This document shows, piece by piece, positions 7,788-57,978 of a stretch of DNA of 64,000 bases. Below the pieces are notes generated by a model that was not told the origin of the DNA, made no database searches, and saw only the letters and a list, made by a program, of their open reading frames with translations. Location: positions 6,167-70,166 of the forward strand of contig DATLQZ010000074.1 in assembly GCA_035534915.1 (NCBI GenBank), in the 5' to 3' direction. Position 1 is the stretch's first letter. Every line of letters begins with the position of its first letter. Both the position numbers and the translations under genes were made by a program. This DNA comes from Candidatus Dormiibacterota bacterium (GTDB lineage: Bacteria > Chloroflexota > Dormibacteria > Aeolococcales > Bog-877).

Positions 7788-7788
7788 G

Positions 7789-40162: not shown

Positions 40163-41449
40163 ATGCGTCGAGCCCTGGTGATCCCGGCAGTAGGCTTGCT
40201 TACGGTCCTTGCGGGCTGTGGGGCGAGCACCCCTGTTGGTACGCCTGCGAAACCGGGTCCAATCAACGTCGGCGTGATCGCCCCCTTCAGCGGGTCCGCT
40301 GCCGAGTTTGGGACACTGCTGTCGGCTCCCTGTGAGGCGGCGACTCTGCTGATCAACAATGCGGGCGGGGTGCTTGGACATAAGCTTCAATGCACTGCCG
40401 TCGACGACACCGGGGACGCCGCCGACGCCGTCCCAAATGTGACGCGGGCAGTCGCCACCATCTCCAACTTGGACATGGCCATGGGCTTGGAGAGTAATAC
40501 CGCTGCCACGACCGTCCCGATCATCAACAAGGCTGGGATTCCCTTTGTTACGACCAACGGTCTGGTCGCGTTCAACCGTACGACCGACAAGTACTATTGG
40601 CGGCTGACCCCAGCCGATAACGCCAACGGCGCGGCATTCGCGGTGTGGGCAGCCGACAAGGGCTACAAGCGGGTCGCAGTGATCTTCGAGAACAACATCG
40701 GATCGCAGGGGAATCTGCCCGGCATTGTCTCGGCCGCTCCCAAGCTCGGACTCAAGATCACCAGCAACCTCACCATTCCTGCCGACGCCAGTTCGTACTC
40801 CAGCGTGGTGTCGACCGTTCTGAGCGGCCATCCGCAAGCATTGATTTTCTCTGCGGACCCCCAGACCACTGCCACCTTCCTGGCCAACTATTCCCAGCTC
40901 AACAACGGCAGTATCCCCGCCATGATCACGGCCACCGACTCGTTGACGCCCGACTTTTACTCGGCAGTGGCTAAGGCCGTGGGGGCAAGCTACCTTCTCC
41001 ACGATATGTTTCTTGTGGGGTCGTACTTCAGCAACACCACCCCTGCCTTCTACGCTTATAAGCAAGCAATGGAGGTGAATCCCAAGACTCATGCAATCGC
41101 CGGAGTCATCACCACGGTCGGACCGCCCGCTTCGGCCTACGACGGCATGAACATACTGGCCTTGGCTATGCTGGCATCCAAGAGCACTACGGGGTCGGTG
41201 TACAACTCCTATGTGCCCCAAATCGTCTCGAAGAAGTCCGGCGCTGTAGTGGTGCACACATTCGCGGAGGGGAAGAAGGCACTGGCTGAGGGCAAGCAGA
41301 TTCAGTACGTCGGTGTCGTGGGCCCGGTCAGCTTCAACAAGTACCACAACTTCTCGGGCCAGTTCGCGGTTGTAGTCTTCACAAGTGCGACCCAGTCGAC
41401 TTCAGTGAAGGTCATCTCTGGGGCCCAGGTCTCGCAACTGCTGCAGTAA
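40163..41449 (+). CDS. ABC transporter substrate-binding lipoprotein, LivK/Peripla_BP_6 family
   Basis: ATG 40163 follows GGAGGGACGGAG. 428 aa with the lipoprotein signal MRRALVIPAVGLLTVLAGC (lipobox LAGC) and a type-I periplasmic-binding-fold body. Ligand not assignable. Confidence 0.85.
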   Translation: MRRALVIPAVGLLTVLAGCGASTPVGTPAKPGPINVGVIAPFSGSAAEFGTLLSAPCEAATLLINNAGGVLGHKLQCTAVDDTGDAADAVPNVTRAVATISNLDMAMGLESNTAATTVPIINKAGIPFVTTNGLVAFNRTTDKYYWRLTPADNANGAAFAVWAADKGYKRVAVIFENNIGSQGNLPGIVSAAPKLGLKITSNLTIPADASSYSSVVSTVLSGHPQALIFSADPQTTATFLANYSQLNNGSIPAMITATDSLTPDFYSAVAKAVGASYLLHDMFLVGSYFSNTTPAFYAYKQAMEVNPKTHAIAGVITTVGPPASAYDGMNILALAMLASKSTTGSVYNSYVPQIVSKKSGAVVVHTFAEGKKALAEGKQIQYVGVVGPVSFNKYHNFSGQFAVVVFTSATQSTSVKVISGAQVSQLLQ

Positions 41450-44304: not shown

Positions 44305-45070
44305 GGGGGGGCAGGAGGGCGTTCCGGCTCTGGCGGTTCGCGACCTGGTCGCTGGGTACGGTGACTTCGCGGTGGTTGATGGCATCAGCCTGGAGGTTCC
44401 CGCCGGCAAGGTGGTGGCGGTCGCTGGCCCGAATGGGGCCGGCAAGAGCACACTGCTCAAGGCGATGCTGGGCATCGCCAAGGTGATGGGGGGCCAAGTC
44501 TTCCTGGAGGGGCGGGATGTCACATCCGTTCCCCTCGAACAGCTGGCTCGACTAGGGGTGGGATACGTGCCCCAGCTCGATGACGTGTTCGACTCGCTGA
44601 AGGTGATCGAAAATCTGGAGATGGGCGGGTATCTGTGCAATCGCGCGGAACGACAGCGGCGGATAGAAAGTGTGCTCCAGGTGTTCCCTCAACTCCAGGC
44701 CAAGCTCCACCGCTACGCCGAGACCTTGAGCGGGGGCGAGCGCAAGATGACTGCAATTGCGAGAGTCCTGATGCTCGACCCGAAGGTTCTGGTTCTCGAC
44801 GAGCCAACCGCCAGCCTCACCCCTGAGCTGTCCCGAGTTGTGCTGGAAGAACAGGTTCGTCCCCTGAGTGCGATGGGGAAGTCGGTCTTGTTGGTGGAGC
44901 AGAAGGCTGTCGCAGCGCTAGCGATAGCTGACTGGGCCTACCTGTTGGTGCGTGGCCGAGTCGAGGTGTCCGCCCCGGCCGCCGAGGTGTTGAGTGACCC
45001 CCACATGCGGGAGATATTTCTGGGTCGCGCGGCGGCGGAGGTCGCCGCAAGCGGCCTCGACAGCAAATGA
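44285..45070 (+). CDS. livF: ABC transporter ATP-binding protein (LivF type)
   Basis: 261 aa with GPNGAGKST, LSGGERKMTAI and VLVLDEPTASL. It overlaps the livG end by 20 nt. Confidence 0.88.
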   Translation: MPTSSVRGGQEGVPALAVRDLVAGYGDFAVVDGISLEVPAGKVVAVAGPNGAGKSTLLKAMLGIAKVMGGQVFLEGRDVTSVPLEQLARLGVGYVPQLDDVFDSLKVIENLEMGGYLCNRAERQRRIESVLQVFPQLQAKLHRYAETLSGGERKMTAIARVLMLDPKVLVLDEPTASLTPELSRVVLEEQVRPLSAMGKSVLLVEQKAVAALAIADWAYLLVRGRVEVSAPAAEVLSDPHMREIFLGRAAAEVAASGLDSK

Positions 45071-46719
45071 ACGGTGCAGATGCCTTCGTCGCGACACTCC
45101 GGGAGTGGGGGGTTGACACGTTTTTTGGGCTGCCCGGCTCGACCGAAGCTCCGCTCCTGGAAGCTCTGCGGGAGGATGGCGGGATTCGCTACGTGCTTGC
45201 CCTGCACGAGGGGGTGGTGGTGGCGATGGCAGATGGTTATGCTCGGGCCGCAGGTCGACCGGGAGTGGTCGGGCTGCACACCACTGTGGGCGCCATGAAC
45301 GGGATGAGCCAGCTGTTCAATTCCGCCAAGGATGGGGTGCCAGTGGTGATGACCGTCGGTCACAAAGACACCTCAGTGCTGGCCGAGGACGGATTCTGCA
45401 CCATTCCAGACTTGGCATCGCTGCTGCGTCCCTTTACGAAGAGGGCCCGACAGACGTTGGCACCCCAATCGATCGCGGCCGATCTCGCCAGGTCCCTGCA
45501 AGCGGCGGTCAGCAGCCCTTCAGGGCCTACCTTCCTAGCCGTGCCTGAGGACTTTATGGCGGCCCCGGTCAGCTTGAGCCCGGAGCCCGGTTCCTTGCCA
45601 GGTCTCCGGCGCCCGGTGGGGCTCGGATCCGGTCCGCGTGAGGAGATCGAGGCCGCAGCTAAGTTGCTCGCTCAGTCCTCGCGACCGCTCCTGGTCCTGG
45701 GTACCGCTGGGGCCCCGGCAAGGACACAGGTAGCCGAGCTGGCTCGCGCCGCGGGTATCGCGGTGGTCGCGGCCGACCTTACCGACTTGGCCAGCCTGTC
45801 TTACCAGGGATCCGACCCCGGTTATCTCGGGGTCTACGGAGACGAGCCCGCCGTTCTGGACGGGTGCGACCTGGTCCTGGCGGTTGGATGCAGAGTCTTC
45901 TACCCATTTTCCCATCGCCTGCGGCCGCGCCTACCTGAAGGCGCTGCGCTGGTGCATATCCACCCCGACGCGGCTCAGATCGGGATGGCCGCAGCGCCGA
46001 CCGTTGGGATAGTCGCTGATCCCAAACGGGCACTTCAGGCGCTGTTGGAGGCGTATGTGGGCTTGGATGTCGCCAAGATGATCGCGGCCCGCAGGGCTCG
46101 GCTGGGAGAGCTCCAAGCGAAGCGGGCTCAGGCGCTGGCCGAGGAGCTGGCGGCCAGTAAGGGGCAATCTCCGGTCGAGATGGCCGATCTTGCGGACGCC
46201 ATCTCCGACGCTCTTCCAGAGGGGACCATCCTGGTGGAAGAGGCGGTGCGGGGGTCCCGGCTGATCTTTCGCCACTGCGGGGTGCCCAAGGGCGGCGAGA
46301 TTTGGCGGAGCAGTGGAGGCGCGCTGGGCTGGGGCCTTCCGGCTGCGGTGGGCGCCAAGCTGGCGAGGCCCGATCGCTCAGTGGTGGCGGTGGTCGGAGA
46401 CGGAACCCTGCACTTCTCCGTCCAGGCGCTCTGGAGCGCCGTCTCACAGCGCGCCCCAATCGTGGTTGTGGTACTGGACAACGGCGGCTATCTGGCCGTG
46501 AAGCGTGCCATCGAGAACATGTTGCGGGTGCCGCTCGACCCACGTCTGCATCCGGGCACTGAGATCCAAGGAGTTGATCACGAGGCTGCGGCGCACGCCT
46601 ACGGGGCCGAGGCCGTGACAGTGACCAGCGCTGCCGAGGCTGGGGCGGCGATCAGGGAGGGATTGGCCGCGGAGCGGGTCACGGTGGTGGTCGTCCCGGT
46701 GGCGAAGATCAGGCCGTGA
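45067..46719 (+). CDS. thiamine-diphosphate-dependent enzyme (acetolactate synthase / benzoylformate decarboxylase-like)
   Basis: ATG 45067 overlaps the livF stop (ATGA). 550 aa with an N-terminal PYR domain (GADAFVATLREWGVDTFFGLPGSTEAPLLEAL). The C-terminal ThDP motif is GDGTLHFSVQALWSAV...VVVLDNGGY. Substrate not assignable. Confidence 0.85.
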   Translation: MNGADAFVATLREWGVDTFFGLPGSTEAPLLEALREDGGIRYVLALHEGVVVAMADGYARAAGRPGVVGLHTTVGAMNGMSQLFNSAKDGVPVVMTVGHKDTSVLAEDGFCTIPDLASLLRPFTKRARQTLAPQSIAADLARSLQAAVSSPSGPTFLAVPEDFMAAPVSLSPEPGSLPGLRRPVGLGSGPREEIEAAAKLLAQSSRPLLVLGTAGAPARTQVAELARAAGIAVVAADLTDLASLSYQGSDPGYLGVYGDEPAVLDGCDLVLAVGCRVFYPFSHRLRPRLPEGAALVHIHPDAAQIGMAAAPTVGIVADPKRALQALLEAYVGLDVAKMIAARRARLGELQAKRAQALAEELAASKGQSPVEMADLADAISDALPEGTILVEEAVRGSRLIFRHCGVPKGGEIWRSSGGALGWGLPAAVGAKLARPDRSVVAVVGDGTLHFSVQALWSAVSQRAPIVVVVLDNGGYLAVKRAIENMLRVPLDPRLHPGTEIQGVDHEAAAHAYGAEAVTVTSAAEAGAAIREGLAAERVTVVVVPVAKIRP

Positions 46720-47035: not shown

Positions 47036-48061
47036 TTGAGGCCGCCGCTCGGGATCATGCTGCACACGGGTGACATGGGATACCCGGACATCGTGCGGTT
47101 CGCACGGCGGGCGGAGGACGCGGGCTATGAGCACTTCCTGCTCACCGAGGAGTCTGCGAAAGAGGCCTTCTCGCTCCTGGCCGCGCTCGCTACCGCCACC
47201 CAGAAGATCAGGCTGGGCACCGGAATTGTCAGCTTCTACACGAGGACTCCCACTTTGCTGGCCATGGCGGCACGATCCATTTGGGAGCTTTCCTCGGGCC
47301 GATTCAGCCCTCTCGGGATTGGCACCGGCGGCATTGGCTTCATGACCCGCGGCCACGGGATGACCTTGGACCGGCCGGTTGGGCGGGCGCGTGAAACGGT
47401 GGAGATCGTGCGCAGCTTGCTGACCGAGCCCAGAACCTCCTACCAGGGTAAGTGGTTTCGAGTAGAAGACTTTCATCTGCGCGAGGGTGCTCTCCCGGAC
47501 GGTGCCAGGATCCCGATTTGGCTCGCCGCGTTGGGTCCGCAGATGGCCACCATGAGCGGAAGGGTCGCGGACGGGATGATCAGCAACTGGCTCATTCCCG
47601 AGTCGCTGGCGGAGTACCGCACTTTGATCCAGGCTGGGGCCACAATTTCCGGGCGCAGTCAGAGTGACTTCCAGATTTCGAGTCTGACCATGGTCTGCGT
47701 CGACCCTAGTGATGAAGAGGCCGTGCGCGCCGCCAGACGGGGGGTGGCCTTCTATTGTGCCAGCACCCACTACCACCACATAGCAGATCTGGCCGGGTTG
47801 GGCGAGCAGGCCCGACGGGTGCAGTCCGTATGGGAGACCCGAGATTTCGAGGCGGCGGCTGCCATGGTGAGCGATGAGATGCTGGCCCGCTTCACGCTGG
47901 CCGGTTCGGACCGCGAGAATGAGGCCCGCCTAAAATGGATGATCTCCGAGGGAGTGCTGCCGATCATCTATCCACTCCCGCGCCGGTCGCGGGTGGTTGA
48001 GGACCACTTCACCGTCCTCGAGCGAGCGGCCGCCTGGAGTGGCCTGGGTGGTAAAGACTGA
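47036..48061 (+). CDS. LLM-class (luciferase-like) flavin/F420-dependent oxidoreductase
   Basis: LRPPLGIMLHTGDMGYPDIVRFARRAEDAGYEHFLLTEE, IRLGTGIVSFYTRTP and WLAALGPQM are typical of luciferase-like monooxygenase-fold proteins. TTG 47036 or ATG 47057 is the likely start; the track start 46931 adds a non-homologous extension. Confidence 0.78.
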   Translation: MRPPLGIMLHTGDMGYPDIVRFARRAEDAGYEHFLLTEESAKEAFSLLAALATATQKIRLGTGIVSFYTRTPTLLAMAARSIWELSSGRFSPLGIGTGGIGFMTRGHGMTLDRPVGRARETVEIVRSLLTEPRTSYQGKWFRVEDFHLREGALPDGARIPIWLAALGPQMATMSGRVADGMISNWLIPESLAEYRTLIQAGATISGRSQSDFQISSLTMVCVDPSDEEAVRAARRGVAFYCASTHYHHIADLAGLGEQARRVQSVWETRDFEAAAAMVSDEMLARFTLAGSDRENEARLKWMISEGVLPIIYPLPRRSRVVEDHFTVLERAAAWSGLGGKD

Positions 48062-48063
48062 GG

Positions 48064-49725
48064 ATGGAAGGGGTGACCTCGTTTCCAAGGGCCCTAGCGG
48101 AGCGATATCGACTCCGCGGGTATTGGGAGGACCGTGCACTTGGCGAGGTCTTTCAAGAGTGTTTCCAGAAGTTCGGGGATTCGCTAGCTGTGATCGACGG
48201 GGACGAACGATGGAGCTTCGCAGAGCTGGGCCAGGGTGTGGAGCGATTGGCGCTGAACCTTCTGGATCTGGGGATTCAGCCGCTCGATCGAGTGGTGCTC
48301 CAACTCCCCAACCGCGTGGAGTTCATTCTCTTGTACTTTGCGCTGCAACGCTTGGGGGCGATTCCACTGCTGGCCCTGCCAGGGCACAGAGAGTACGAGA
48401 TTGGTCACTACCTGGATTTCGTGGAGGCAGTGGGGTACGCCGCGCCTCCGAAGTACGGCGATTTCGATTGCCTGGGACTGGCGGCACGTCTCCAGGGGCA
48501 CAACCCCAATCTCCGTCTGATACTGGTCGCGGGGCCGGCCCCTGATCGGCCCGGGCATGTGGGCATCCGCGACCTGCTGCAACGCGCTCCCAAGGCCACG
48601 GTTGACCAGCTGCGCGGACTCTCAATTGACCCGGATGAACCGTGTGTATTCCAGCTGTCCGGGGGGACGACCGGTATCCCCAAAGTGATCCCACGCAGCC
48701 ACAATGACTACCTCTACAACAGCCGTCTGATCGCTTCGGTCAATGACATCAGGGCAGGGGATCGCTTGCTCGTTACGGCCCCGATTGGCCACAACTTTCC
48801 CCTTGCTTCTCCAGGTATACAGGGCTTCTTCCTGCACGGCGGGACGGTGGTGATGTGCCCCAGCCCTCGGTCGGGAGTGGTGCTACCGCTCATCGAACGT
48901 GAAAGCGTGACTCACCTGGAAATCGTGCCGGCGATGGTTCTGTCCTGGCTCCACGACGGCCTCATCCACGATCATCACCTGGAGTCTGTTCGCGTGATCA
49001 ACAGCGGGGGCCAGAAGTTCCAGCGTGATACCAAGATCCGGACCGAGGCCGCTTTCGTCGGCGCCAAGGTACAGGAGGTCTTCGGAATGGCTGAGGGCCT
49101 TCTGATGATCACCCGACTGGACGATCCCCGGGAGGTCAGGCTGGAGACGGCGGGCCGACCAATCTGCCCTGACGATGAGGTCATGTTGGTGGGCGAGGAT
49201 GGGCTCGAGGTCCGCGGGGGGGAGATCGGAGAGCTCCTCTGTCGCGGGCCGTACACCCTGCGTGGTTACTACCGTGCTCCCGAGGCGAACCGACGCGCGT
49301 TCACCGAGGACGGCTTCTACTGCTCGGGCGACCTGCTGCGACTGCACTCCTCAGGCAACTACGTGGTGGAGGGGCGTAAGAAGGATCTGGTGAATCGCGG
49401 GGGGGAGAAGATCAGCGCTGAAGAGGTAGAGGAGATGCTTCTCGGTCATCCCCTGGTAGCCAACGTCGCCTGCGTGCCGATGCCCGATCCAATCCTCGGG
49501 GAGCGCATGTGTGCCTTCGTCCAACCGATCCACGGTGCCACACCTGCGTTGAGTCAGCTGACCGCCATGTTGACGGAGCGCGGGTTGGCGCGCTTCAAAC
49601 ATCCGGAAAAGTTGGTGCTCGTCGCGGAGCTCCCGCTATCCCCGTTTGGCAAAGTACAGAAAAGCGTTCTGAGCCGGCGGGCCGCCGAGCTGGTCGACAC
49701 TACCAAGGAGGGTTACCCAAATTGA
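48064..49725 (+). CDS. aryl-acid adenylating enzyme, (2,3-dihydroxybenzoate)-AMP ligase DhbE/EntE-like, copy 1
   Basis: 553 aa; ATG lies 2 nt after the LLM stop. It has an EntE-like N-terminus (LAERYRLRGYWEDRALGEVF), ANL motifs LSGGTTGIPKVIPRSHNDYLYN, GEIGELLCRGPYTLRGYY and VNRGGEKISAEEVE, and the A10 motif PLSPFGKVQK. Confidence 0.85.
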   Translation: MEGVTSFPRALAERYRLRGYWEDRALGEVFQECFQKFGDSLAVIDGDERWSFAELGQGVERLALNLLDLGIQPLDRVVLQLPNRVEFILLYFALQRLGAIPLLALPGHREYEIGHYLDFVEAVGYAAPPKYGDFDCLGLAARLQGHNPNLRLILVAGPAPDRPGHVGIRDLLQRAPKATVDQLRGLSIDPDEPCVFQLSGGTTGIPKVIPRSHNDYLYNSRLIASVNDIRAGDRLLVTAPIGHNFPLASPGIQGFFLHGGTVVMCPSPRSGVVLPLIERESVTHLEIVPAMVLSWLHDGLIHDHHLESVRVINSGGQKFQRDTKIRTEAAFVGAKVQEVFGMAEGLLMITRLDDPREVRLETAGRPICPDDEVMLVGEDGLEVRGGEIGELLCRGPYTLRGYYRAPEANRRAFTEDGFYCSGDLLRLHSSGNYVVEGRKKDLVNRGGEKISAEEVEEMLLGHPLVANVACVPMPDPILGERMCAFVQPIHGATPALSQLTAMLTERGLARFKHPEKLVLVAELPLSPFGKVQKSVLSRRAAELVDTTKEGYPN

Positions 49726-50717
49726 TCATCGATGCCTACTCCCATGTCTGCCCGGAGCGTCTCATCGCGGCGATCAACCGGGATTACCCCAGCGCCGAGG
49801 CGGCCGCGCTCGACAGTCGACCTTATCTTCGGGACGCCGCCAAGCGTGTCCGATTCATGGATGAGGTGGGCATTGACGTACAGGTCCTGGTACTGGTCCG
49901 TCCTCCAATGTGGCTAGGCATGCCGCGCGAGGTCATGTACCGGATGATGCGTGAGGCCCATCTCGGGATCGCAGCCATGGTCGCCGAGTACCCGGACCGC
50001 TTCGTGGGTACGGCGGTGGCGCCGGCCTGCGACGAGCGGATCTTGACCGAACTTCGATTCGCCTGGGATGAATTGGGTTTGGTGGGGGCGGAGATCTTCT
50101 CCAATGTTGAGGGACAGCCGCTGGACGCCCAAGAGATGTGGCCCCTATATGCAGAGGTTGAGCAGCGCGGTGTGCCACTGTGGATACATCCCCAGCACAC
50201 CTCCTACCTGTACCCTTGGATCAAGGAGTCCCTTTTGGATCGCAGCCTGGGGTGGCCGTTCGACACCTCGCTAGCGATGATGCGGCTGGTCTATGGCGGT
50301 GTCATGGAGCGCTATCCAGACCTGAAGATCGTCACCCATCACTTGGGGGGCATGATCCCTTACTTTGGTGCTCGGCTGGACGCCTTTGACCATGAGATCG
50401 CTGAGTATCGCGCCAAGCAGCTTACCGGCGCCGCCGCCGTGGAGCTCTCCGCCCCCGTGGGTGATTATCTGCGACGTTTCTACAACGATACTGCCATCAG
50501 TTACAGCCCGGCTACCTTGCGCTGCGGGCTGGACTACTTCGGACCGCTTCACGTGATGTTCGGTACCGACTTTCCCATGGGATCGGCGGACGGGGAGACA
50601 TGGACCCGAGACATCTTGCGGGCCATTGGAGACACCGCGATGTCAGCGGAACACCGCGCTCTCTTGCTCGGAGGCAACGTCCAGCGGCTGCTGGGCTTGG
50701 ATCGCGCCGGGAGCTGA
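49722..50717 (+). CDS. amidohydrolase_2 (ACMSD / aromatic-acid decarboxylase-like) family protein, copy 1
   Basis: TTG 49722 overlaps the ligase stop (TTGA) and AAGGAGG lies at 49705-49711. 331 aa with LIIDAYSHVCP at the N-terminus, WIHPQH, GWPFDTSLAMMRLVYGGVMERYPDLKIVTHHLGG and MFGTDFP. Confidence 0.8.
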   Translation: MIIDAYSHVCPERLIAAINRDYPSAEAAALDSRPYLRDAAKRVRFMDEVGIDVQVLVLVRPPMWLGMPREVMYRMMREAHLGIAAMVAEYPDRFVGTAVAPACDERILTELRFAWDELGLVGAEIFSNVEGQPLDAQEMWPLYAEVEQRGVPLWIHPQHTSYLYPWIKESLLDRSLGWPFDTSLAMMRLVYGGVMERYPDLKIVTHHLGGMIPYFGARLDAFDHEIAEYRAKQLTGAAAVELSAPVGDYLRRFYNDTAISYSPATLRCGLDYFGPLHVMFGTDFPMGSADGETWTRDILRAIGDTAMSAEHRALLLGGNVQRLLGLDRAGS

Positions 50718-50857
50718 AACGGGTTTGCCCGCGCACAACCTTGGAGTTTGTTAAAAATGGTACTGTCGGGCGTAGGGGGGTGCGGCCGAGCGGCTCGGGT
50801 GCGAACAGCACCAGCCGGCGGCGACAGATCGGAGCCGGAAACGGGGAGTCTTAGGCC

Positions 50858-51712
50858 ATGACCAGAGATCAGCCCAACGTCGCCGAGGAGTTGGTGCGCC
50901 TCGGGTTCTCCACCTATGAGGCACGCACCTACGTCGGCCTGCTAGTAGCCGGCGAGAGTACCGGGTACCGGATCTCCAATGACACTGGAGTCCCGCAGCC
51001 AAAGGTTTACGAGACCCTGCGTCGGCTCGCGGAGAGGGGGGCTGCGACGCTGGTCAACCAGCGTCCCGCCCGTTACGCAGCCGTGCCCCCGGAACAACTG
51101 CTCGGTCGTCTACAAGGGGACTTCAGCAAGCGGTTGGAGCGGGCGCGCACCGGTTTTCGGGAACTGCCCTCCGGAGTCGGCGGCACGACCGGGCTCACGG
51201 TTAACCGTCTGGCCAGCATCGACGCCGCTTTGGAGCACACCCGCCGAGCCATCGACAAATCCGCCACTCGGGTGTACCTGCACGCCCGCCGAGACGAGCT
51301 CACGCCGCTTGCGGGAGCGGTGAAGTCGGCCGCTGCCCGCGGGGTCGAGTTCGTCATGGTCCACTTCGGCGCTCTGCCTTTCCCAGCTCCGCCGGGGCGG
51401 GTGGTCAGGCATGCCAGCACCGATGGCACCCTCTACGCCTCACGCGGAGTTCGTCATCTGGCGGCCGTGGTCGATTCGCGGTGGGGGCTGTGGGTGCTCT
51501 CTCGGGAGGGGCAGGCGGACGAGGGATTCCATGCCGACAGCCCACTCATGGCTAGCTTGGTCAAGACGTACATCCGTCACGACCTGTTCGTCCAGCGTAT
51601 CTACTCTGACTTTTCGACCGAGCTGGAGGAGGCGTACGGTCCCGGCCTGCTCAGCCTCACCGATTTTTCCGCGGAAGACGGGCTGGAGGAGGTTGCGGGC
51701 CAGGTCGGCTAG
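50858..51712 (+). CDS. TrmB-family transcriptional regulator
   Basis: 284 aa with the winged-HTH LGFSTYEARTYVGLLVAGESTGYRISNDTGVPQPKVYETLRRLAERGAA and a TrmB-type C-terminal domain. Confidence 0.8.
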   Translation: MTRDQPNVAEELVRLGFSTYEARTYVGLLVAGESTGYRISNDTGVPQPKVYETLRRLAERGAATLVNQRPARYAAVPPEQLLGRLQGDFSKRLERARTGFRELPSGVGGTTGLTVNRLASIDAALEHTRRAIDKSATRVYLHARRDELTPLAGAVKSAAARGVEFVMVHFGALPFPAPPGRVVRHASTDGTLYASRGVRHLAAVVDSRWGLWVLSREGQADEGFHADSPLMASLVKTYIRHDLFVQRIYSDFSTELEEAYGPGLLSLTDFSAEDGLEEVAGQVG

Positions 51713-51821
51713 CCATCGTCCTGGTAGCCCACCCACTACGGTAGGTATCTTTAGACCGCGGTGTGCCTACGGCCGGGTCTCAAACCGTCGCGAACGTTTT
51801 CTGAAGGGAGCAAGGATATCT

Positions 51822-53393
51822 ATGACGCTTGATGGAGTGGTCCCGTTTCCAGCTGAATTCCAGCAGCGCTACCGGGAACGAGGATATTGGGAGGACCTGA
51901 CCATGGATCAGGTCTTTCGGGCCGCCTTCGCTCGCCACGCCGACCGAACCGCCATTATTTTTCAAGACCACGAGGTCACATATTCGCAGCTGCAAGAGCA
52001 CGCTGACCGGCTGGCGGGGTGGCTCTGGCAGGAGGGGGTCAGGCCCCTTGATCGGGTGGTGGTGCACCTGCCCAACCGTCCGGACTTCATCTACCTCCAT
52101 TTCGCTCTTCAGCGGCTGGGAGCCGTCCCGATCATGGCATTGGCCGCGCACCGTCGCTACGAGATCGACCACTACCTCCGGCTGGCGGAGGCAACTGCTT
52201 ATTTCGGCACAGATCCGGAGCTAGCCGCGGAGGTGCAACTCACGAATCCGCAGCTGCGGCTCGTGGTTACCGGGGATGAGCTATCTCGGCCCTCAGCTGC
52301 CCCGGAAGCCCCGGCTGTGGCAATCGATCCCACCGATCCTTGCCTGCTCCTACTGTCAGGCGGCACCACCGGCGTCCCCAAGCTCATCCCCCGCACTCAC
52401 AACGACTACATCTACAACACGAAGGCGGCTTCCGCTGCCCAGGACATCACTCCTGAGACGGTGCAGTTGTGTGTCCTGCCGCTGGCTCACAATATGCCGC
52501 TGGCTTGCCCTGGGATCCAGGGGGTGTTTCTTGCAGGTGGCAAGGTGATTCTTCGCGGCAGCACCAGACCTGAGGACGTGCTCCCGGCGATCGAGCGCCA
52601 CCGCGCGACGCATGTGGCTGGGGTTCCGGCGCTCTATATCCGATGGCTGAGCGACCCGCTCAGTGCCGCGTGCGACCTGAGCTCGGTTCAGCTTCTGCAA
52701 TCTGGCGGCCAACGGCTTCAGCCCGAAGTGAGGCGGCGGATGGCGCGCGCCTTTCCCAACGCCTTCGTCCAAGAGAACTTCGGGATGAGTGAAGGGACGC
52801 TGTTCTTCACCAGCCGAGACGATCCGGAGGAGGTGCGCCTGGAGACGGTTGGCGTTCCGGTGTGCCCGGACGACGAGGTTCGACTGACCCAGGAAGACGG
52901 GAGGGATGTGCTCGACGGGGAGGTTGGCGAGCTCACTGTCCGGGGTCCCTACACCCTGCGCGGGTACTACCGAGCCGCGGACTACAACCATCGGGTGTTC
53001 ACCCCAGACGGCTTCTACAGGTCCGGCGACCTGATGCGACGTCACCCCTCGGGGGCTTATCTGGTGGAGGGCAGGATTAAGGACCTGGTCAATCGCGGCG
53101 GCGAAAAGATCAGCGCCGAGGAGGTGGAGAATCTCATTCTCACCCACCATAAGGTCCGCGATGTAGCCTGCGTGCCTCTTCCCGACCCGGTCCTGGGAGA
53201 GAGGATGTGCGCCTGTGTCATCGCCAAAGACGGCGAGACGGTGACGTTGCCGGAGTTAACAGCACACCTGCTGGACCTAGGTTTGGCGAAGTTCAAGCTC
53301 CCGGAGCGCGTTGAGTTGGTGGAGTCCTTTCCGCTCTCGCCCTTTGGGAAGGTATCCAAGAAGGCGCTCGCAGATCGGTTCGCAGCCGCGTGA
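51822..53393 (+). CDS. aryl-acid adenylating enzyme, DhbE/EntE-like, copy 2
   Basis: ATG 51822 follows GAAGGGAG. 523 aa with FQQRYRERGYWEDLTMDQVF, LSGGTTGVPKLIPRTHNDYIYN, GEVGELTVRGPYTLRGYY, VNRGGEKISAEEVE and PLSPFGKVSK. By eye it matches copy 1 at roughly half of its positions. The track start 51411 is an unsupported extension. Confidence 0.85.
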   Translation: MTLDGVVPFPAEFQQRYRERGYWEDLTMDQVFRAAFARHADRTAIIFQDHEVTYSQLQEHADRLAGWLWQEGVRPLDRVVVHLPNRPDFIYLHFALQRLGAVPIMALAAHRRYEIDHYLRLAEATAYFGTDPELAAEVQLTNPQLRLVVTGDELSRPSAAPEAPAVAIDPTDPCLLLLSGGTTGVPKLIPRTHNDYIYNTKAASAAQDITPETVQLCVLPLAHNMPLACPGIQGVFLAGGKVILRGSTRPEDVLPAIERHRATHVAGVPALYIRWLSDPLSAACDLSSVQLLQSGGQRLQPEVRRRMARAFPNAFVQENFGMSEGTLFFTSRDDPEEVRLETVGVPVCPDDEVRLTQEDGRDVLDGEVGELTVRGPYTLRGYYRAADYNHRVFTPDGFYRSGDLMRRHPSGAYLVEGRIKDLVNRGGEKISAEEVENLILTHHKVRDVACVPLPDPVLGERMCACVIAKDGETVTLPELTAHLLDLGLAKFKLPERVELVESFPLSPFGKVSKKALADRFAAA

Positions 53394-53398
53394 ACAGA

Positions 53399-53441
53399 GG
53401 AGGCAGCCGCTCTGGTCTATTTGACCCGAGCGGCTGCCTCC
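53399..53441. terminator. perfect 14-bp hairpin between convergent genes (bidirectional terminator-like)
   Basis: GGAGGCAGCCGCTC (53399-53412), a 15-nt loop, then GAGCGGCTGCCTCC (53428-53441). It sits between the ligase-2 stop (53393) and the amidohydrolase-2 stop (53444). Confidence 0.55.
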
Positions 53442-53443
53442 CG

Positions 53444-54274
53444 CTAGTCCTCGTCAGTGCCGAACAGCAGCCGGTGAGAGTTGGCGTACAGGATCTTGTG
53501 CTTCACGTCCTCGGGCAGCTCAATTGCCTCGAAGTCCTTGAGCCACCGCGCCGCCGTCATTACCGGGGCATCGGTGCCAAAGAGCACTCGGTCCGGGAAT
53601 ATCGACTTCGCGTACTGCCACACGGTGTCCGGGATGTATTTTGGCGACCATCCGGATAGTTCGAGGTAACAGTTGCGGCGGATCCAGACCACGGAGATTG
53701 CCTGGTTCACCCAGGGAAAGCCGAAGTGCGAAAGAATGATCTTGAGATCGGGAAAATCGAGAGCGACCTCGTCGAGTAGGGTCGGGTCGCCATACTGCAT
53801 CCGGCCTCCGGACTGGTTGTGTCCAGTGTGCACCAATACCGGAATCCCGAGCTCCTGGGCCTTCGCCCAGAGCGGGTAGTGGGCCCGATCATTGGGATAG
53901 AAGTGCTGGGTCGGGGGGTGCAGCTTGAGGCCACTCATGCCCAGGTCGCGAATGGCGTGCTCCAACTCGATGACCGCCATCTCGTGCTTGTTGGGGTCGA
54001 CACTGGCGAATCCGACAAATCGGTCGGGCGCCTGTGCCACCAGCTTGGCGACCACCTCGTTGGGCACCTTCCACCCGTGAGTTGTCTCACAGTCAAACGC
54101 CAAGAGTACAGACTTCTCGACCTCGGTCTGGTCCATCTCCCGCACCATGTCTTCCACGGTGATGGGATTGCCACCGAAATTGAAGGTTTTGCGGGCGTGA
54201 CCCCAGAACCAATCTGGGGTCACGGCCAGGACCTCCTCGGTGTACGGGTGAACGTGAATGTCGATTGACTTCAA
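53444..54274 (-). CDS. amidohydrolase_2 (ACMSD-like) family protein, copy 2
   Basis: 276 aa with a canonical N-terminal MKSIDIHVHP (HxH), GLKLHP, VLVHTGH, ILSHFGFPW and LFGTDAP. Confidence 0.85.
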   Translation of the reverse strand: MKSIDIHVHPYTEEVLAVTPDWFWGHARKTFNFGGNPITVEDMVREMDQTEVEKSVLLAFDCETTHGWKVPNEVVAKLVAQAPDRFVGFASVDPNKHEMAVIELEHAIRDLGMSGLKLHPPTQHFYPNDRAHYPLWAKAQELGIPVLVHTGHNQSGGRMQYGDPTLLDEVALDFPDLKIILSHFGFPWVNQAISVVWIRRNCYLELSGWSPKYIPDTVWQYAKSIFPDRVLFGTDAPVMTAARWLKDFEAIELPEDVKHKILYANSHRLLFGTDED

Positions 54275-54323: not shown

Positions 54324-55088
54324 CTACGTGGTGGCGCTGTAGCCGCCGTCGATCACGACGACCGACCCTGTGACCATGTGGTTCGATGTGATCAACGAGA
54401 CCACGACCTCGGACACGTCCTCGGCCGTCACCACCCGGCCGAGCGGCGTGTGACTTGAGCGCCGGTCCATGAGGCGCTGGTAGTTGTCGCCCAGCGTCTG
54501 CTCCATCCACTCTCCCAGGACCCATCCTGGTGCCACCGCGTTGACTCGGACCTGGGGGGCGAGAGCCCGTGCCAGGGTCCTGGTGAGGTTGGCGACCGCT
54601 GCCTTGGTGGCCGCGTACGGGAGTGGCTGGGCGCTGGGTCGAAGTCCGGCGATGCTCGACATGTTGACAACGCTCGCGTCATCGGACAGCCGCAACAGTG
54701 GGACGGCGGCTCGAGTCACCTGAAACAGCCCGCGGACGTTCACCGCGAAGACCCGATCCCACGCCTCCAGATCCATCGATTCAAGGTCCTCGGGGGCGGT
54801 CTCGACGGTCATGCCCGCGTTGTTAACCAGCGCGTCCAGCCGGCCGAAGGTATGAGCGCAGGTCTGCAGCATCGCCCTGACCGCGGATTCGTCACTCACA
54901 TCTGCCTGCAGGGGCATCGCCTGAGCACCAAAGCTACGGACCAGCGCTGCGGTCTCCTCCGCCTGCTCCGCGCTGCGGCTGAAGTTGACCGCTACGTCAT
55001 AGCCGCGCTGGGCGAGGGCGACCGCCACACTCCTGCCCATCCCGCGAGAGGCTCCGGTTACCAAAGCCGCTCTGCGAATCTCGCTCAA
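54324..55088 (-). CDS. SDR-family oxidoreductase (FabG-like)
   Basis: 254 aa with the Rossmann motif VTGASRGMG, NNAG, and the catalytic S...YAATK. The TTG start overlaps the stop of the upstream OsmC-like gene (TTGA). Confidence 0.9.
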   Translation of the reverse strand: MSEIRRAALVTGASRGMGRSVAVALAQRGYDVAVNFSRSAEQAEETAALVRSFGAQAMPLQADVSDESAVRAMLQTCAHTFGRLDALVNNAGMTVETAPEDLESMDLEAWDRVFAVNVRGLFQVTRAAVPLLRLSDDASVVNMSSIAGLRPSAQPLPYAATKAAVANLTRTLARALAPQVRVNAVAPGWVLGEWMEQTLGDNYQRLMDRRSSHTPLGRVVTAEDVSEVVVSLITSNHMVTGSVVVIDGGYSATT

Positions 55089-55639
55089 CTCAAATCCTCC
55101 GGGGACGAGATATCCAACTCCGATCCATTGAGGTCGACGGCCATGGTCGTGGCCACCGGGTGGCGGAACGTCTGACTGGCGTGGCAGGCTCTTTCGGCAT
55201 GTTGGCAGAGGCGGGCCACGGCCTCCGGAGGCGCCGGGCTCTTCACGCGGAGCAGAAACTCAACGTGCTGAAAGGCGCCCGGGGGACCCCCGAGGTCGTA
55301 CTTGTCCGCGAGGCTAAAGGTGGCCCGCACATCGGCCTCGGCTTCCCAGATCGTCACATCGTAAAGAGGCGAAAACTTCGCCAATTGGGTGAGCATTCAA
55401 AAGGCCGCTCCGGCCAGCAGATACTGCAGCGGACGGGGCGCGGAGCCCCCGCCACCTCCCGCAACCGGCTCGTCCGATTCCAGCCGAAAGGTGCCGACCC
55501 GACCCTCCATATGTAGGTCGCGATCGATGCGAGCGACCGCCCGCTGGGTGATCAGTGGCTGCTCCGCTGTCTCGGCCCTGGTGGCCTCGTAAACCTGCCG
55601 CATCCGTTCCAGGTTGACCCTCGGCTCGGGGTCGCTCAT
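55085..55639 (-). CDS. OsmC/Ohr-family peroxidase-like protein interrupted by one in-frame TGA at the first catalytic Cys position (candidate selenoprotein, or pseudogene)
   Basis: Track ORFs 55397..55666 and 55085..55396 are in the same frame, separated only by TGA (55399-55397). The joined product reads ...SAPRPLQYLLAGAAF[TGA]MLTQLAKF...HAERACHASQTF, which fits the OsmC fold and both Cys motifs. ATG 55639 overlaps the upstream gene's stop (ATGA); GTG 55666 is an alternative start. Confidence 0.6.
55368..55382 (-). promoter_or_regulatory. SECIS-like hairpin 14 nt downstream of the in-frame UGA
   Basis: The minus-strand RNA reads UGA-AUGCUCACCCAAUU-GGCGAA-GUU-UUCGCC. This is a 6-bp stem with G-U at the start of the apical loop, about 20 nt after the UGA. 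It is short and was not tested for covariation. Confidence 0.3.
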
Positions 55640-57978
55640 ATCGACGGTCCTCCCATTAGGCGCCACAGCTTCTCGGGTGAGTACGGGGGGTTGGCGTGGC
55701 GCACGCCGAGTTCCCGGAGAGCATCAAACACGGCATTCGCGATCGCCGCAGGTACCACGATGCAGCCTGATTCCGCCACCCCTTTGGTCCCCAGCGGGCT
55801 GAGAGGCGAGCGGGTCGGTCGGAACTCCGTGATCATCTCGATGTCCACATCGGGCATGGTGGGGATGGCGTAGCTCATGAAGCCCTCGGTCAGCGGCTGA
55901 CCGTTGCCATCGTGGGACACCTCCTCGAAGATCGCGGCCGCGACTCCTTGAATGCTGGAACCGATCACCTGTCCTTCCGCCAAGAGCGGGTTGATGATTG
56001 GGCCGGCGTCGTCGACTGTCACCAGCCGTTCCACCCGCACAAAGCCGGTCTCCCGATCTATCTCGACAGTGGCAACGGAGGCGCTGGAGCCAAACGCCAG
56101 CCGGGGAAGGGTGAATCGGCCATCTCCCCGGAGTTCTGGCAAGTCGGCGTTCGGCCATTCTGCAGCTGCCCGAGCGATCTCGGCTAGGGTGAGGAGACGT
56201 TCGCCGGCCGGTCCGACAATCGCTCCCTGATCCCAACGGAGCTGCTCTTCGGGGATGTCCAGCATGTGGGCGGCCCAGATCTGACAACGGCGCTGCAGCT
56301 CCTCGATTGCCAGCAGGATCGCCCCCCCGCCGACAGTCACAGAGCGGCTGGCGAAGGTTCCCATGCCAAGAGGAACTTCAGCGGAGTCCCCACTGTGAAC
56401 TTCGATGTCGTCGGTATCGAGCCCCAGGGCATCGGCCGCGATTTGAGAGAAGGTTGTCGCGTGGCCCTGCCCGTGGTCGCTGGATCCAGGCAGCAGCAGG
56501 ACCCGCCCATCGGGTTGTAGCTTGGCGGCGGCCGTCTCCCAGTTGCCGTTGCCGCTCGACTCGACGGCGACGGCAACACCAATTCCCCGCAGCTTCCCCT
56601 GAGATCTGTCGAGCGCCAGGTCGGCGCGGGCCCGTGCGTAGTCCGCGAGCTCCAACGCCCTGTCTAAAAGTCCTGGGTAGTCTCCCGAGTCATACTCCGT
56701 GCCGGTGGCGGCAAGGTACGGGAGTGCTTCTGGCGGCACCAGATTCAACTTCCGTATCGCCACCGGGTCCATGCCCAGTTCGGCCGCGGCGAGGTCTGCT
56801 AGCCGCTCGATAACGAAGGTCGCCTCGGGCCGACCGGCGCCCCGATAGGGGCCGGTGGGGACCTTGTTCGTGGCCGCTCCAACGACTTCCACGTCGGCCG
56901 CTGAGATGTCGTAGGGTCCGGTCGCCAGACTGCTCGAGGTTGATCCCACCACCGCGGTATGGCCCAGTAGATAGGCGCCGGCATCAAAGATCATTCGTAC
57001 TCGGAGCGCTTTGAATCGTCCCGTGGCATCCACGGCAAGCTCGGCGTCCGCGTCCATGCCGCGGCCCTGGTAGGAGGCGACGAATGCTTCCGAGCGGGTC
57101 TCGACCCACTTGACAGGCCGTCCGGTCTGTATCGCCGTCAAGGCGGCGACCACATACTCGGGAGCCAAGCCGCCCTTGCTGCCGAAGGCGCCGCCGACGT
57201 CTGGTACGACAACCCGGATGCGGTCCGCCGGACGGCCGAGGACGTACGCCATCTGAAGGCGAGGTCGGTGCGGATCTTGGGATGAACACCAGAGCGTCAA
57301 GAGATCGTCGTCTGCTGAGTACTTCGCGACACAGCCCCGCGGTTCGATTGGAGATGCCTGCAGTCGGGGAATCGAGAAATCGGCTCGGATCACCCTGGCT
57401 GCCCGTTGCAGTTCCCCGCTCACGTCTCCTGAAGCATGTCGGTAGGAGAAGAGCACGTTGTCAGGGGCAGCCGGCTGGACGGGCGGGCCGCCGTCCAGGG
57501 CTGCCCTCGGTGCGCCCACCGAGGGCAGCGCATCCAGCTCGGGCCAGACGAGGTCGGCGGCATCGGCAGCCTGGCTCCTGGTCTCTGCCAGCACCGCCGC
57601 AACGGCCTCGCCGACGAACCGGACCTTCTCTGCGGCCAGAATCGGCATTGGAACGTCCGCCACCTTGAAGCCATCTGGGAGTTGGGTCGCGCGAAGGGGC
57701 AGGGGTAGCAGACTCTTCGGCAGGTCTGCCGCCGTTATGACCTGAACGACGCCGGGTGAGGCCTGGGCCGCTGCGAGGTTCAGGCCTCGAATGCTGGCGT
57801 GGGGAACCTGGCTCCTAACGAAGGCGAGATGTAGGCAATCCGCAAACTCAAGATCGTCCAAGTAGGCACCCTGCCCGAGCACCAAGCGGGCATCCTCCCG
57901 TCGGATCTGGGGCCGTCCGATCCATGGCTCAGTCAAAGAACTCCCACTCCAGTCTGCCCTGCCCTGGCTCCCCCTCAT
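55636..57978 (-). CDS. xanthine dehydrogenase / aldehyde oxidase / CoxL-family molybdopterin-binding subunit
   Basis: 780 aa with IGRPQIRREDARLVLGQGAYLDD (a/b hammerhead), GGAFGSKG and GPYRGAGRPEATFVIERL. No FeS (CoxS) or FAD (CoxM) subunit gene is adjacent. Confidence 0.9.
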   Translation of the reverse strand: MRGSQGRADWSGSSLTEPWIGRPQIRREDARLVLGQGAYLDDLEFADCLHLAFVRSQVPHASIRGLNLAAAQASPGVVQVITAADLPKSLLPLPLRATQLPDGFKVADVPMPILAAEKVRFVGEAVAAVLAETRSQAADAADLVWPELDALPSVGAPRAALDGGPPVQPAAPDNVLFSYRHASGDVSGELQRAARVIRADFSIPRLQASPIEPRGCVAKYSADDDLLTLWCSSQDPHRPRLQMAYVLGRPADRIRVVVPDVGGAFGSKGGLAPEYVVAALTAIQTGRPVKWVETRSEAFVASYQGRGMDADAELAVDATGRFKALRVRMIFDAGAYLLGHTAVVGSTSSSLATGPYDISAADVEVVGAATNKVPTGPYRGAGRPEATFVIERLADLAAAELGMDPVAIRKLNLVPPEALPYLAATGTEYDSGDYPGLLDRALELADYARARADLALDRSQGKLRGIGVAVAVESSGNGNWETAAAKLQPDGRVLLLPGSSDHGQGHATTFSQIAADALGLDTDDIEVHSGDSAEVPLGMGTFASRSVTVGGGAILLAIEELQRRCQIWAAHMLDIPEEQLRWDQGAIVGPAGERLLTLAEIARAAAEWPNADLPELRGDGRFTLPRLAFGSSASVATVEIDRETGFVRVERLVTVDDAGPIINPLLAEGQVIGSSIQGVAAAIFEEVSHDGNGQPLTEGFMSYAIPTMPDVDIEMITEFRPTRSPLSPLGTKGVAESGCIVVPAAIANAVFDALRELGVRHANPPYSPEKLWRLMGGPSI

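Follow-up and report, generated by a model that had tools for sequence, protein, structure and literature searches.

Stand-alone DhbE-like adenylases with oxidoreductase and amidohydrolase partners: two putative catabolic modules in Candidatus Dormiibacterota

A 64-kb stretch of contig DATLQZ010000074.1 from a Candidatus Dormiibacterota bacterium (assembly GCA_035534915.1), referred to here as the window, encodes two adenylases that resemble the siderophore enzymes DhbE and EntE, each with an amidohydrolase of family PF04909 beside it. The locus raises the question of what such adenylases activate, and for which pathway, when they stand among genes of a catabolic kind. Adenylase 1 (ADE1), which is 100% identical to a protein of a Candidatus Dormibacteria metagenome-assembled genome, lies between a luciferase-like oxidoreductase (LLM) and amidohydrolase 1 (AH1). 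A TrmB-family regulator follows, and adenylase 2 (ADE2) then converges on amidohydrolase 2 (AH2). All of these genes are located where an earlier reading of the letters alone, the sequence-only reading, had placed them (Table 1). A short-chain dehydrogenase/reductase (SDR) gene just beyond the interval of that reading (47036–54274) had been overlooked, yet it is part of the ADE2/AH2 module. The region at 40.0–58.0 kb can be described, with moderate confidence, as a chromosomal catabolic island with two related three-gene modules, A (LLM, ADE1, AH1) and B (ADE2, AH2, SDR). The interpretation favoured here, which has about an even chance of being correct, is that these modules are CoA-dependent activate-oxidise-cleave units for imported acids with an oxygen function at the beta position.

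The adenylases and the search for siderophore and Sdg partners

The DhbE model TIGR02275 is the top family for both adenylases, with 512.4 bits for ADE1 and 498.5 bits for ADE2, and the next family reaches 280 bits. Their closest PDB matches are the salicylate-AMP ligase CahJ (5wm2) and DhbE (1md9), then PchD and EntE, at E values of 1e-139 to 1e-105. ADE1 and ADE2 are 52% identical to each other and each is 38–45% identical to EntE, DhbE and SdgA. Given these relatives and the lack of carrier partners, their earlier description as DhbE/EntE-like and stand-alone is sound.

The family placement and the NCBI protein name, (2,3-dihydroxybenzoyl)adenylate synthase, would suit a role in siderophore or natural-product priming, in which the adenylases load an aryl carrier protein (ArCP) or a non-ribosomal peptide synthetase (NRPS) encoded elsewhere in the genome. 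Both scores are, however, below the curated whole-protein cut-off of TIGR02275 (723.55 bits). When the window and 90 related loci (within ~10 kb) were searched by tblastn, EntC, DhbC, EntB, the EntB ArCP alone, EntD, EntH and YbdZ gave no match at E ≤ 1e-3, and EntF found adenylation domains only. No isochorismate synthase, isochorismatase/ArCP, phosphopantetheinyl transferase, MbtH-like protein, proofreading thioesterase or NRPS module was detected in the window, in which the largest open reading frame (ORF) is 916 aa and the small ORFs of the intergenic gaps have no Pfam match even at E ≤ 1. The sequence-only reading had likewise found no ArCP, condensation domain, isochorismate synthase or isochorismatase in the window, and the tblastn and small-ORF Pfam searches for them were empty. 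Its preference for a catabolic over a siderophore setting is also upheld. The neighbours are consistently catabolic, with uptake genes, a thiamine pyrophosphate (TPP) decarboxylase and a molybdenum (Mo) hydroxylase in the window, and ring-cleavage dioxygenases, thiolase and enoyl-CoA hydratase (ECH) in relatives. Two residues of the 2,3-dihydroxybenzoate (DHB) pocket, Y236 and V337, are changed as well. A siderophore role was therefore rejected for the window and the 90 loci, and priming of a carrier encoded elsewhere is scarcely probable.

A genome scan found 80 loci with adenylases 47–82% identical to those of the window, in at least eight phyla, and metagenome look-ups added further loci (numbered here with the prefix L). 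The phyla represented are Dormibacterota, Chloroflexota, Actinomycetota, Pseudomonadota, Binatia, Acidobacteriota, Eremiobacterota and Bacillota. The adenylases were sorted by tblastn of the window proteins against the loci, all-against-all clustering of ORFs and a neighbour-joining (NJ) tree, in which three spurious out-of-frame ORFs (L081_521, L007_9961 and L004_10102) were disregarded. All three approaches separate two large, uncharacterised sister clades. In the tree, ADE1 falls with the LLM-linked adenylases (clade A) and ADE2 with those linked to SDR and PF04909 genes (clade B), while EntE, DhbE and two SdgA proteins are outside both.

The substrate pocket was compared over 92 clade sequences, 77 of them of clade B, in DhbE numbering after alignment to 1md9. 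H234, N235 and G331 are kept in 92/92 and the catalytic K519 in 91/92; H234 and N235 contact the ortho-hydroxyl in DhbE. The ADE1 pocket is H234 N235 F236 S240 Q308 V329 L337 and that of ADE2 is H234 N235 M236 C240 Q308 N329 L337, neither of which matches the DHB type (Y236, S240, A308, V329, V337). At position 236, DhbE and EntE have Y, SdgA and clade A have F, and clade B has L or M. The residue at 240 is C in SdgA and 77/77 clade B sequences, and S in most of clade A as well as in DhbE and EntE. V337 is replaced by L or I in the clades, where positions 337–339 as a whole are altered; V305S, A/S308Q and Q328E are common to both clades, and V329N is added in clade B (77/77). In comparison with DhbE and EntE, the ortho-hydroxyl contacts are thus kept and the DHB-type positions 236, 308 and 337 are changed. 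As H234 and N235 are invariant, a contact to oxygen at the position beta to the carboxylate would be retained, with one or two polar pocket residues gained. This suggests that the preferred substrate is an ortho-hydroxyaryl, beta-hydroxy or enolised beta-oxo acid with a further polar group.

Stand-alone DhbE-like adenylases are already known from catabolism in the Sdg salicylate pathway (PMC4600096, PMC13215587), found in Streptomyces sp. WA46 and on plasmids pASPHE301 and pDF01. Such a pathway would here lead from salicylate through salicylyl-AMP/CoA and 5-hydroxylation to gentisyl-CoA, then gentisate and ring cleavage. The SdgA-type adenylases of the reference clusters, which lie on catabolic plasmids (L091 and L092), are 42–45% identical to ADE1 and ADE2 and also stand alone, and the acid is likewise processed as an activated acyl derivative with no carrier protein. 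Unlike the Sdg genes, however, those of the window include no SdgB (acetate-CoA ligase family), SdgC hydroxylase or gentisate dioxygenase, and the adenylase partners are an LLM or an SDR with a PF04909 protein. SdgB and SdgD had zero tblastn matches in the window and the 90 loci, and SdgC matched only L017, L020 and L021. ADE1 and ADE2 belong to clades of their own outside the SdgA pair, and they differ from it at V305S, A/S308Q and Q328E. The Sdg-type pathway is therefore largely refuted by its missing partners and must be considered very improbable.

Oxidoreductases and other partners in related loci

The partners of clade B were counted in the 50 loci whose flanks each extend for 2.5 kb or more. 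A PF04909 homologue is present in 48 of these, an SDR gene within 2.5 kb in 48, and both in 47. The SDR gene is immediately upstream of the adenylase and an AH2-like PF04909 gene immediately downstream, no more than 300 bp from the adenylase in 37 of the 50. The adjacency of adenylase and amidohydrolase seen in the window is thus strongly conserved in relatives. Clade A has an LLM in 10 of 15 loci, in 9 of them at ≤300 bp from the adenylase. Its usual PF04909 partner is of the AH1 type in Dormibacterota and L004, and of the AH2 type in L013, L014, L015 and L095. The whole arrangement of the window is retained in the Dormibacterota relatives L009–L012. The sequence-only reading had taken the two units for a duplicated (de)carboxylase-plus-adenylase module. 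This does not hold, since the adenylases belong to different clades with different oxidoreductase partners (LLM versus SDR) and AH1 and AH2 are only 25% identical.

Other genomes show what the modules are connected to. In Burkholderiales, a LysR gene is divergent from an eight-gene operon with the order TctC, SDR, adenylase, PF04909, carboxylesterase, thiolase, ECH, ECH. The thiolase scores 680 bits, above the PcaF equivalog cut-off of 597; one ECH is PaaF-like and the other belongs to the PRK09245 crotonase family. The adenylase is the sole activating enzyme in this operon and must therefore, on this reasoning, supply the CoA ester. Across all loci, an ECH is encoded in 23 and a thiolase in 14. 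Ring-cleavage genes (Rieske, LigB/LigA, tautomerase, aldolase, vicinal oxygen chelate (VOC) and FAA hydrolase genes) are frequent neighbours of clade A, and in L095 a clade-A adenylase is accompanied by a CouO-type amidohydrolase, an LLM and LigAB. Both modules occur in one locus in the non-Dormibacterota L004–L006 (GCA_027335405.1, GCA_027417635.1 and ENA sample ERZ27237319), along with Liv-ABC, Rieske alpha and beta, LigB, tautomerase, LLM-adenylase-AH1, class II aldolase, thiolase, S15 hydrolase and SDR-adenylase-ECH. This co-occurrence suggests that the two modules act in one pathway.

The oxidoreductases differ between the modules. For the LLM, the ten best of 27 NCBIfam matches are all F420 classes, all of them under the cut-off (177 versus 345 bits). 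Its PDB matches are all F420 enzymes (Mer, Fgd and the hydroxymycolate dehydrogenase fHMAD), with the single exception of an entry that is called just 'Luciferase family protein'. The F420 biosynthesis genes cofC/D/E/G/H adjoin the adenylase-LLM pair in L007 and L008. In these loci (L007 1280–6729, L008 3212–8184), F420_ligase, CofD, CofC and CofG/H, in L007 also F420_oxidored, are directly upstream of a FAD monooxygenase, a small VOC protein and the pair itself, which looks like a self-contained F420-dependent catabolic island. The SDR is 55–66% identical across phyla, and its nearest relatives are generic FabG proteins and glucose dehydrogenase.

The closeness of LLM and adenylase allows a further reading of module A, as a split carboxylate reductase in which the acyl-adenylate or thioester made by ADE1 is reduced to an aldehyde by an F420H2-dependent LLM, with AH1 acting later. 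Within module A, conservation is highest for the adenylase-LLM pair, which at times stands without a PF04909 gene (L007, L008 and L028) and is directly beside the F420 genes in L007 and L008, and the gap between LLM and ADE1 is only 2 nt. We know of no F420-dependent LLM, however, that reduces acyl-adenylates or thioesters, the known ones being engaged in alcohol/ketone, imine and nitroaromatic hydride chemistry. The Mo enzyme of the window is moreover of an aldehyde-oxidising type, which is the opposite direction. This makes a split reductase quite improbable.

The Burkholderiales operon bears on another alternative, in which the ring is opened without oxygen. The adenylases would make ortho-hydroxy- or dihydroxybenzoyl-CoA, the SDR or the F420H2-LLM would dearomatise it, and the PF04909 protein would open the ring of the resulting cyclic beta-oxoacyl-CoA by hydrolysis, so that the thiolase receives 3-oxopimeloyl- or 3-oxoadipyl-CoA. 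The eight-gene operon has no oxygenase, yet it has a PcaF-type thiolase and PaaF/PaaG-like ECHs, as in the processing of ring-derived dicarboxyl-CoA. A cyclic beta-oxoacyl-CoA is plausible as a substrate of a CouO-type hydrolase, and the pocket keeps a DhbE/salicylate-like shape, to which the polar residues Q308 (clades A and B) and N329 (clade B) are added. SDR-type phloroglucinol reductases are known, as is F420-dependent hydride transfer to aromatic rings by LLMs. On the other hand, no assay or characterised homologue backs ring reduction by this SDR or LLM, and the generic relatives of the SDR give no support to it. NAD(P)H or F420H2 can dearomatise only rings of the resorcinol or phloroglucinol type, and elsewhere the modules adjoin LigAB or Rieske dioxygenases, which indicates ordinary aerobic ring cleavage. 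Ring opening of this kind is unlikely. In its boldest form, the idea is that the rings of ortho-hydroxy- or dihydroxybenzoates are opened without oxygen by the products of the SDR-adenylase-PF04909 operon and of its F420-LLM counterpart, with a ligase recruited from the siderophore adenylase lineage; this is a speculative and improbable proposal. If true, the route would be a third strategy beside the oxygenolytic and benzoyl-CoA-reductase routes, would be found widely among soil members of Burkholderiales, Actinomycetota, Chloroflexota and Dormibacterota, and would bring F420 for the first time into the CoA-dependent catabolism of aromatic acids.

The amidohydrolases and the proposed order of reactions

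AH1 and AH2 belong to different branches of PF04909. The best solved relative of AH2 is the uncharacterised BB4693 (3irs), both by sequence (E 4e-27) and by a Foldseek comparison of a structural model with pLDDT 94 (TM score 0.82). It keeps the HxH motif (H7, H9), H119, H183 and D235. The closest annotated homologue of AH2, found by tblastn against plasmids, is the product of a Rhizobium sp. Q54 gene annotated as 4-hydroxyphenyl-beta-ketoacyl-CoA hydrolase (36% identity, E 7e-62, 97% coverage). The same protein is 35% identical to the Burkholderiales module-B PF04909 proteins and 42% to that of L095. Its gene has SDR, feruloyl-CoA synthase, ECH and MarR genes as neighbours, and the cluster matches the hydroxycinnamate cluster Atu1415–1422 of A. 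fabrum (PMC7797058). AH2 is therefore a putative beta-ketoacyl-CoA hydrolase. The homologues of AH2 in Bathyarchaeia (45% identity) have unrelated genes as neighbours and are uninformative.

AH1 aligns with human ACMSD (residues 38–328) and with the uncharacterised 3ij6 protein (3–318). Among characterised proteins, it is nearest to ACMSD, LigW and gamma-resorcylate decarboxylase (E 2e-26 to 2e-21), and residues equivalent to H174, H224, R235 and D291 of ACMSD are conserved in it. In its N-terminal motif, IDAYSH, Tyr replaces the first metal-binding His of HxH, as in 3ij6; at the positions of the metal ligands AH1 thus has Y6-S7-H8, H156 and D283. The opposite swap is found in proteobacterial module-B PF04909 proteins (e.g. 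L089 13690–14532 and L072 11686–12528), which mostly have IDLHCY, with Tyr for the second His; AH1 orthologues show Y-x-H, and AH2 and CouO-like proteins retain HxH. The sequence-only reading had classed both amidohydrolases as ACMSD-family members and spoken of a (de)carboxylase module. A likeness to ACMSD and the decarboxylases is borne out for AH1; the nearest annotated relative of AH2 is a hydrolase. A placement of either among lactonases was rejected, as LigI-type entries reach only E 0.009 for AH1 and are absent from the top 50 Foldseek matches of AH2.

The earlier proposal was that a phenol is carboxylated and then activated. In this model, the PF04909 proteins act as non-oxidative hydroxybenzoate (de)carboxylases that work in both directions and carboxylate a phenol ortho to the hydroxyl, with the unfavourable equilibrium pulled by ATP-dependent adenylation or CoA ligation, or else the acid is activated before ring modification. 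It gains from the relatives and conserved catalytic residues of AH1, from the invariant N235 of the adenylases and from a chemical motif, a carboxylate ortho to a hydroxyl, that the characterised enzymes of the two families have in common as their target. AH1 and AH2 also carry the same domain and TIM-barrel fold as the ACMSD, LigW, gamma-resorcylate and 2,3-DHB decarboxylases (COG2159), and the AH2 model superposes on hydroxybenzoate decarboxylases with a TM score of about 0.7. Carboxylation followed by thioesterification is an established logic in anaerobic phenol catabolism. By sequence, however, AH2 matches the decarboxylases only at E values of about 1e-8 to 1e-11, over a partial alignment of about 90 residues, and at 276 aa it is 50–100 residues shorter; AH2 and the module-B PF04909 proteins are far closer to the CouO-type-annotated protein. 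AH1 itself differs from the decarboxylases in the Tyr at the first metal His. Uptake systems of four kinds flank the modules in different genomes: tripartite tricarboxylate transporters (TTT), tripartite ATP-independent periplasmic (TRAP) transporters, Liv-ABC and the major facilitator superfamily (MFS). The association of carboxylate uptake systems and CoA-ester enzymes with the modules argues that an acid is imported and thioesterified, rather than a phenol carboxylated. The model also leaves the conserved SDR/LLM, ECH and thiolase without a role. Carboxylation before activation is rather improbable for the modules as a whole, but it may apply to AH1.

Known systems give the favoured reading its form. 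CouO is an amidohydrolase-superfamily enzyme that catalyses the last step of beta-oxidative deacetylation in R. jostii RHA1 (PMC4737184). In R. rhodochrous GD02, HpeE is an AMP-forming CoA synthetase for a hydroxyphenyl-beta-ketopropionate and the adjacent HpeF is 95% identical to CouO, so that the acid is ligated and then cleaved (PMC9618137). These precedents show that the published pair of adenylate-forming ligase and PF04909 protein is a beta-ketoacyl-CoA hydrolase system, not a decarboxylase system. The likeness to the Cou/Hca systems (R. jostii RHA1 CouL/N/M/O and A. fabrum Atu1415–1421) and HpeE/HpeF is that genes for three kinds of enzyme lie together: an acid:CoA ligase of the AMP-forming type, a dehydrogenase, and an enzyme of the amidohydrolase superfamily that cleaves a C-C bond of a beta-ketoacyl-CoA, the first and last being putative here. 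The putative synthetase is adjacent to the amidohydrolase, ADE2 being convergent with AH2 and ADE1 overlapping AH1, and the annotated hydrolase of a Cou/Hca-type cluster aligns with AH2 and the module-B PF04909 proteins from end to end at 35–36% identity. On an R. opacus plasmid, genes for an amidohydrolase (60% identical to the Rhizobium protein), a ligase, an SDR and a MaoC dehydratase are in a row.

A partial likeness is also found to the Apc and Bal enzymes of Aromatoleum aromaticum. Acetophenone carboxylase, of the hydantoinase A/B family, makes the beta-keto acid benzoylacetate for a CoA ligase (PMC4729919, PMC5214803). There too a beta-keto acid is made, thioesterified and then cleaved, and hydantoinase A/B genes flank module B in 5 loci. 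The window and most loci differ in having no such carboxylase, and in the Bal pathway cleavage is by thiolase.

Activation, oxidation and cleavage would then proceed as follows. The Liv-type ABC system would import a carboxylic acid, which the benzoylformate-decarboxylase-like TPP enzyme and the Mo aldehyde oxidoreductase may first trim, in a mandelate-like feeder that takes a 2-oxo acid to the aldehyde and then to the acid. Each adenylase would be a stand-alone acid:CoA ligase for an ortho-hydroxyaryl, beta-hydroxy or beta-oxo (enol) acid. The partner oxidoreductase, the SDR with NAD(P) or the LLM with F420, would set the beta-oxo state. The PF04909 partner would break the C-C bond of the beta-oxoacyl-CoA, hydrolytically in the case of AH2, as for CouO, HpeF and Atu1421; the ACMSD-like AH1 may decarboxylate or hydrate instead. 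In other genomes, the products would go to ECHs and a PcaF-type thiolase or to ring-cleavage dioxygenases. CoA as the acceptor, the beta-oxygen specificity, the order of the steps and every substrate are what we infer from the genes and their relatives.

Several points weigh against this interpretation. To our knowledge, all characterised members of the DhbE lineage activate aromatic acids, and we know of no beta-keto-acid ligase in it. The ligases here, being of the DhbE/EntE/SdgA lineage, belong to another family than CouL, feruloyl-CoA synthase and HpeE, and they are only 22–30% identical to feruloyl-CoA synthase and the R. opacus ligase. The dehydrogenase is likewise another one, as the window SDR has only 28% identity to the Cou/Hca type and module A has an F420-type LLM. 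The window has TrmB in place of MarR and is itself without ECH, thioesterase, thiolase or any other CoA-dependent gene, so the use of CoA here rests on homology with other loci. The adenylase of the Sdg pathway is described as needing a separate CoA synthase, SdgB, for which the window has no match. The comparison protein for AH2 rests on annotation, and the tie to CouO, HpeF and Atu1421 is through this one annotated intermediate. Most module-B PF04909 proteins have HxY instead of HxH, and their metal site may therefore differ from that of CouO. AH1 is not CouO-like, giving no BLAST match to the annotated Rhizobium hydrolase, and homologues of it at 54% identity occur without an adenylase. As AH1 keeps the ACMSD catalytic residues, module A may here use different chemistry.

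Gene layout, novelty and significance

The G+C content of the window is 63–67%. Its first 40 kb are of a housekeeping nature, with His-, Asp-, Ala-, Thr- and Phe-tRNA synthetases, a sigma factor, RecN, XseA, DinG, NadE, TatD and KsgA, and the catabolic island starts at 40,019 (Table 1). The LLM has a TTG start codon with GAAGGA 8 nt upstream. The 2-nt spacing of LLM and ADE1 and the TTGA start/stop overlap of ADE1 and AH1 are as first reported; AAGGAGGG, a strong Shine-Dalgarno sequence, is 11 nt upstream, and AH1 is translationally coupled to ADE1. The true start of ADE2 is the ATG at 51822, with GAAGGGAG before it. Between the convergent ADE2 and AH2 is a perfect hairpin with a 14-bp outer stem (-40.5 kcal/mol, z -7.95), and 0/200 shuffles fold equally well. 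It is probably a bidirectional terminator. Scans for sigma-70 promoters and intrinsic terminators showed no excess over the shuffled expectation, and no 9-mer was found in at least three of the five promoter regions searched for a common operator motif.

Table 1. Features of the catabolic island, in window coordinates.
Feature	Position	Strand	Basis and remarks
Liv-type ABC substrate-binding protein (Peripla_BP_6)	40019..41449	+	Pfam; opens the island; syntenic in Dormibacterota relatives L009–L012
Two BPD_transp_2 permeases	41532–42419, 42458–43471	+	Pfam, synteny
Two ABC ATPases	43468–44304, 44285–45070	+	Pfam, synteny
TPP enzyme, benzoylformate-decarboxylase-like	45067..46719	+	NF005485, 303 bits (cut-off of 493 not reached)
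F420-type luciferase-like oxidoreductase (LLM), module A	47036..48061	+	PF00296, E 4e-67
Adenylase 1 (ADE1), clade A, 553 aa, module A	48064..49725	+	PF00501 + PF13193
AH1, 331 aa, ACMSD/LigW/gamma-resorcylate decarboxylase-like branch, module A	49722..50717	+	PF04909
TrmB-family regulator	50858..51712	+	PF01978
Adenylase 2 (ADE2), clade B, 523 aa, module B	51822..53393	+	PF00501 + PF13193
Hairpin, 43 nt, between ADE2 and AH2	53399..53441	.	Folding compared with shuffles
AH2, 276 aa, BB4693/CouO-like branch, module B	53444..54274	-	PF04909, E 1e-53
FabG-like classical SDR, third member of module B	54324..55088	-	Profile matches, synteny
Small OsmC-like protein	55085..55396	-	Weak Pfam match, 26 bits, just under cut-off
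Molybdenum hydroxylase/aldehyde oxidoreductase large subunit	55636..57978	-	Profile matches; homologues in 11 related loci

The accompanying genes are conserved to different degrees. A homologue of the TPP enzyme is present in 11 related loci, TrmB adjoins the modules in 15, chiefly in Dormibacterota and Actinomycetota, and the OsmC-like gene is kept in Dormibacterota relatives only. The gap between the TPP enzyme and the LLM (46720–47035) is 317 nt. In the Dormibacterota relatives L001 and L010–L012, a gene for a 621-aa S15 (CocE/NonD) hydrolase sits at this place, and L009 is without it; no remnant of this gene was detected in the gap of the window. No Fer2/Fer2_2 or FAD_binding_5 subunit gene was found near the Mo hydroxylase, and the 900 nt upstream of it (57979–58881) hold only ORFs without a Pfam match. 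Locus L099 has all three Mo hydroxylase subunits in one row. A furoyl-CoA-type logic (ligase, Mo hydroxylase and lactone hydrolase) was considered and set aside, since the Mo enzyme is in only 11 loci and is here without its Fe-S and FAD subunits.

Other features were recorded outside the island. Six aminoacyl-tRNA synthetase genes (HisRS, AspRS, AlaRS, ThrRS, PheRS alpha and beta) occur within 38 kb (601–38899), and a tRNA-Val (GAC) is at 32364–32438 (-). A 584-aa ORF with no Pfam match at E ≤ 1e-6 (9126–10880, +) is downstream of an FtsA/PilM-like gene (7633–9057). A fusion of a metallo-beta-lactamase fold and a rhodanese, of the persulfide dioxygenase-rhodanese type (58882–60234, -), is divergent from a GntR/UTRA regulator (60377–61288, +). 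A single ORF of 514 aa (61383–62927, +) joins a 4Fe-4S dicluster domain (Fer4_11) to an NrfD/PsrC-type membrane domain, which are usually separate subunits.

Neither stand-alone catabolic DhbE-like adenylases, of which SdgA is an example (PMC4600096), nor pairs of ligase and CouO-type hydrolase are new. No description of the present modules was found in the literature on BB4693, on DHB-AMP ligases with F420 or LLM, on the catabolism of salicyloyl-, dihydroxybenzoyl- or resorcyloyl-CoA, or on NcsB2. What is apparently new is the two adenylase clades, their fixed partnerships with SDR/PF04909 and with the F420-LLM, and the very widespread operon so defined. DhbE-like aryl-CoA ligases also occur in natural-product pathways (NcsB2, MdpB2), a point that the literature search did not confirm.

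Annotation pipelines label these proteins (2,3-dihydroxybenzoyl)adenylate synthase, and thousands of metagenomic homologues are so named. The label wrongly suggests synthesis of catecholate siderophores in Dormibacterota, Chloroflexota, Actinomycetota and Burkholderiales, a systematic misannotation that is corrected here. What the data suggest instead is a compact and testable activate-oxidise-cleave module, putatively for plant- or lignin-derived acids, which is carried also by the cultured strains Acidovorax sp. DW039, Sphaerotilus sulfidivorans D-507, Pusillimonas noertemannii and Ramlibacter rhizophilus. Identification of its substrate would fill a gap in the understanding of aromatic-acid catabolism in soil.

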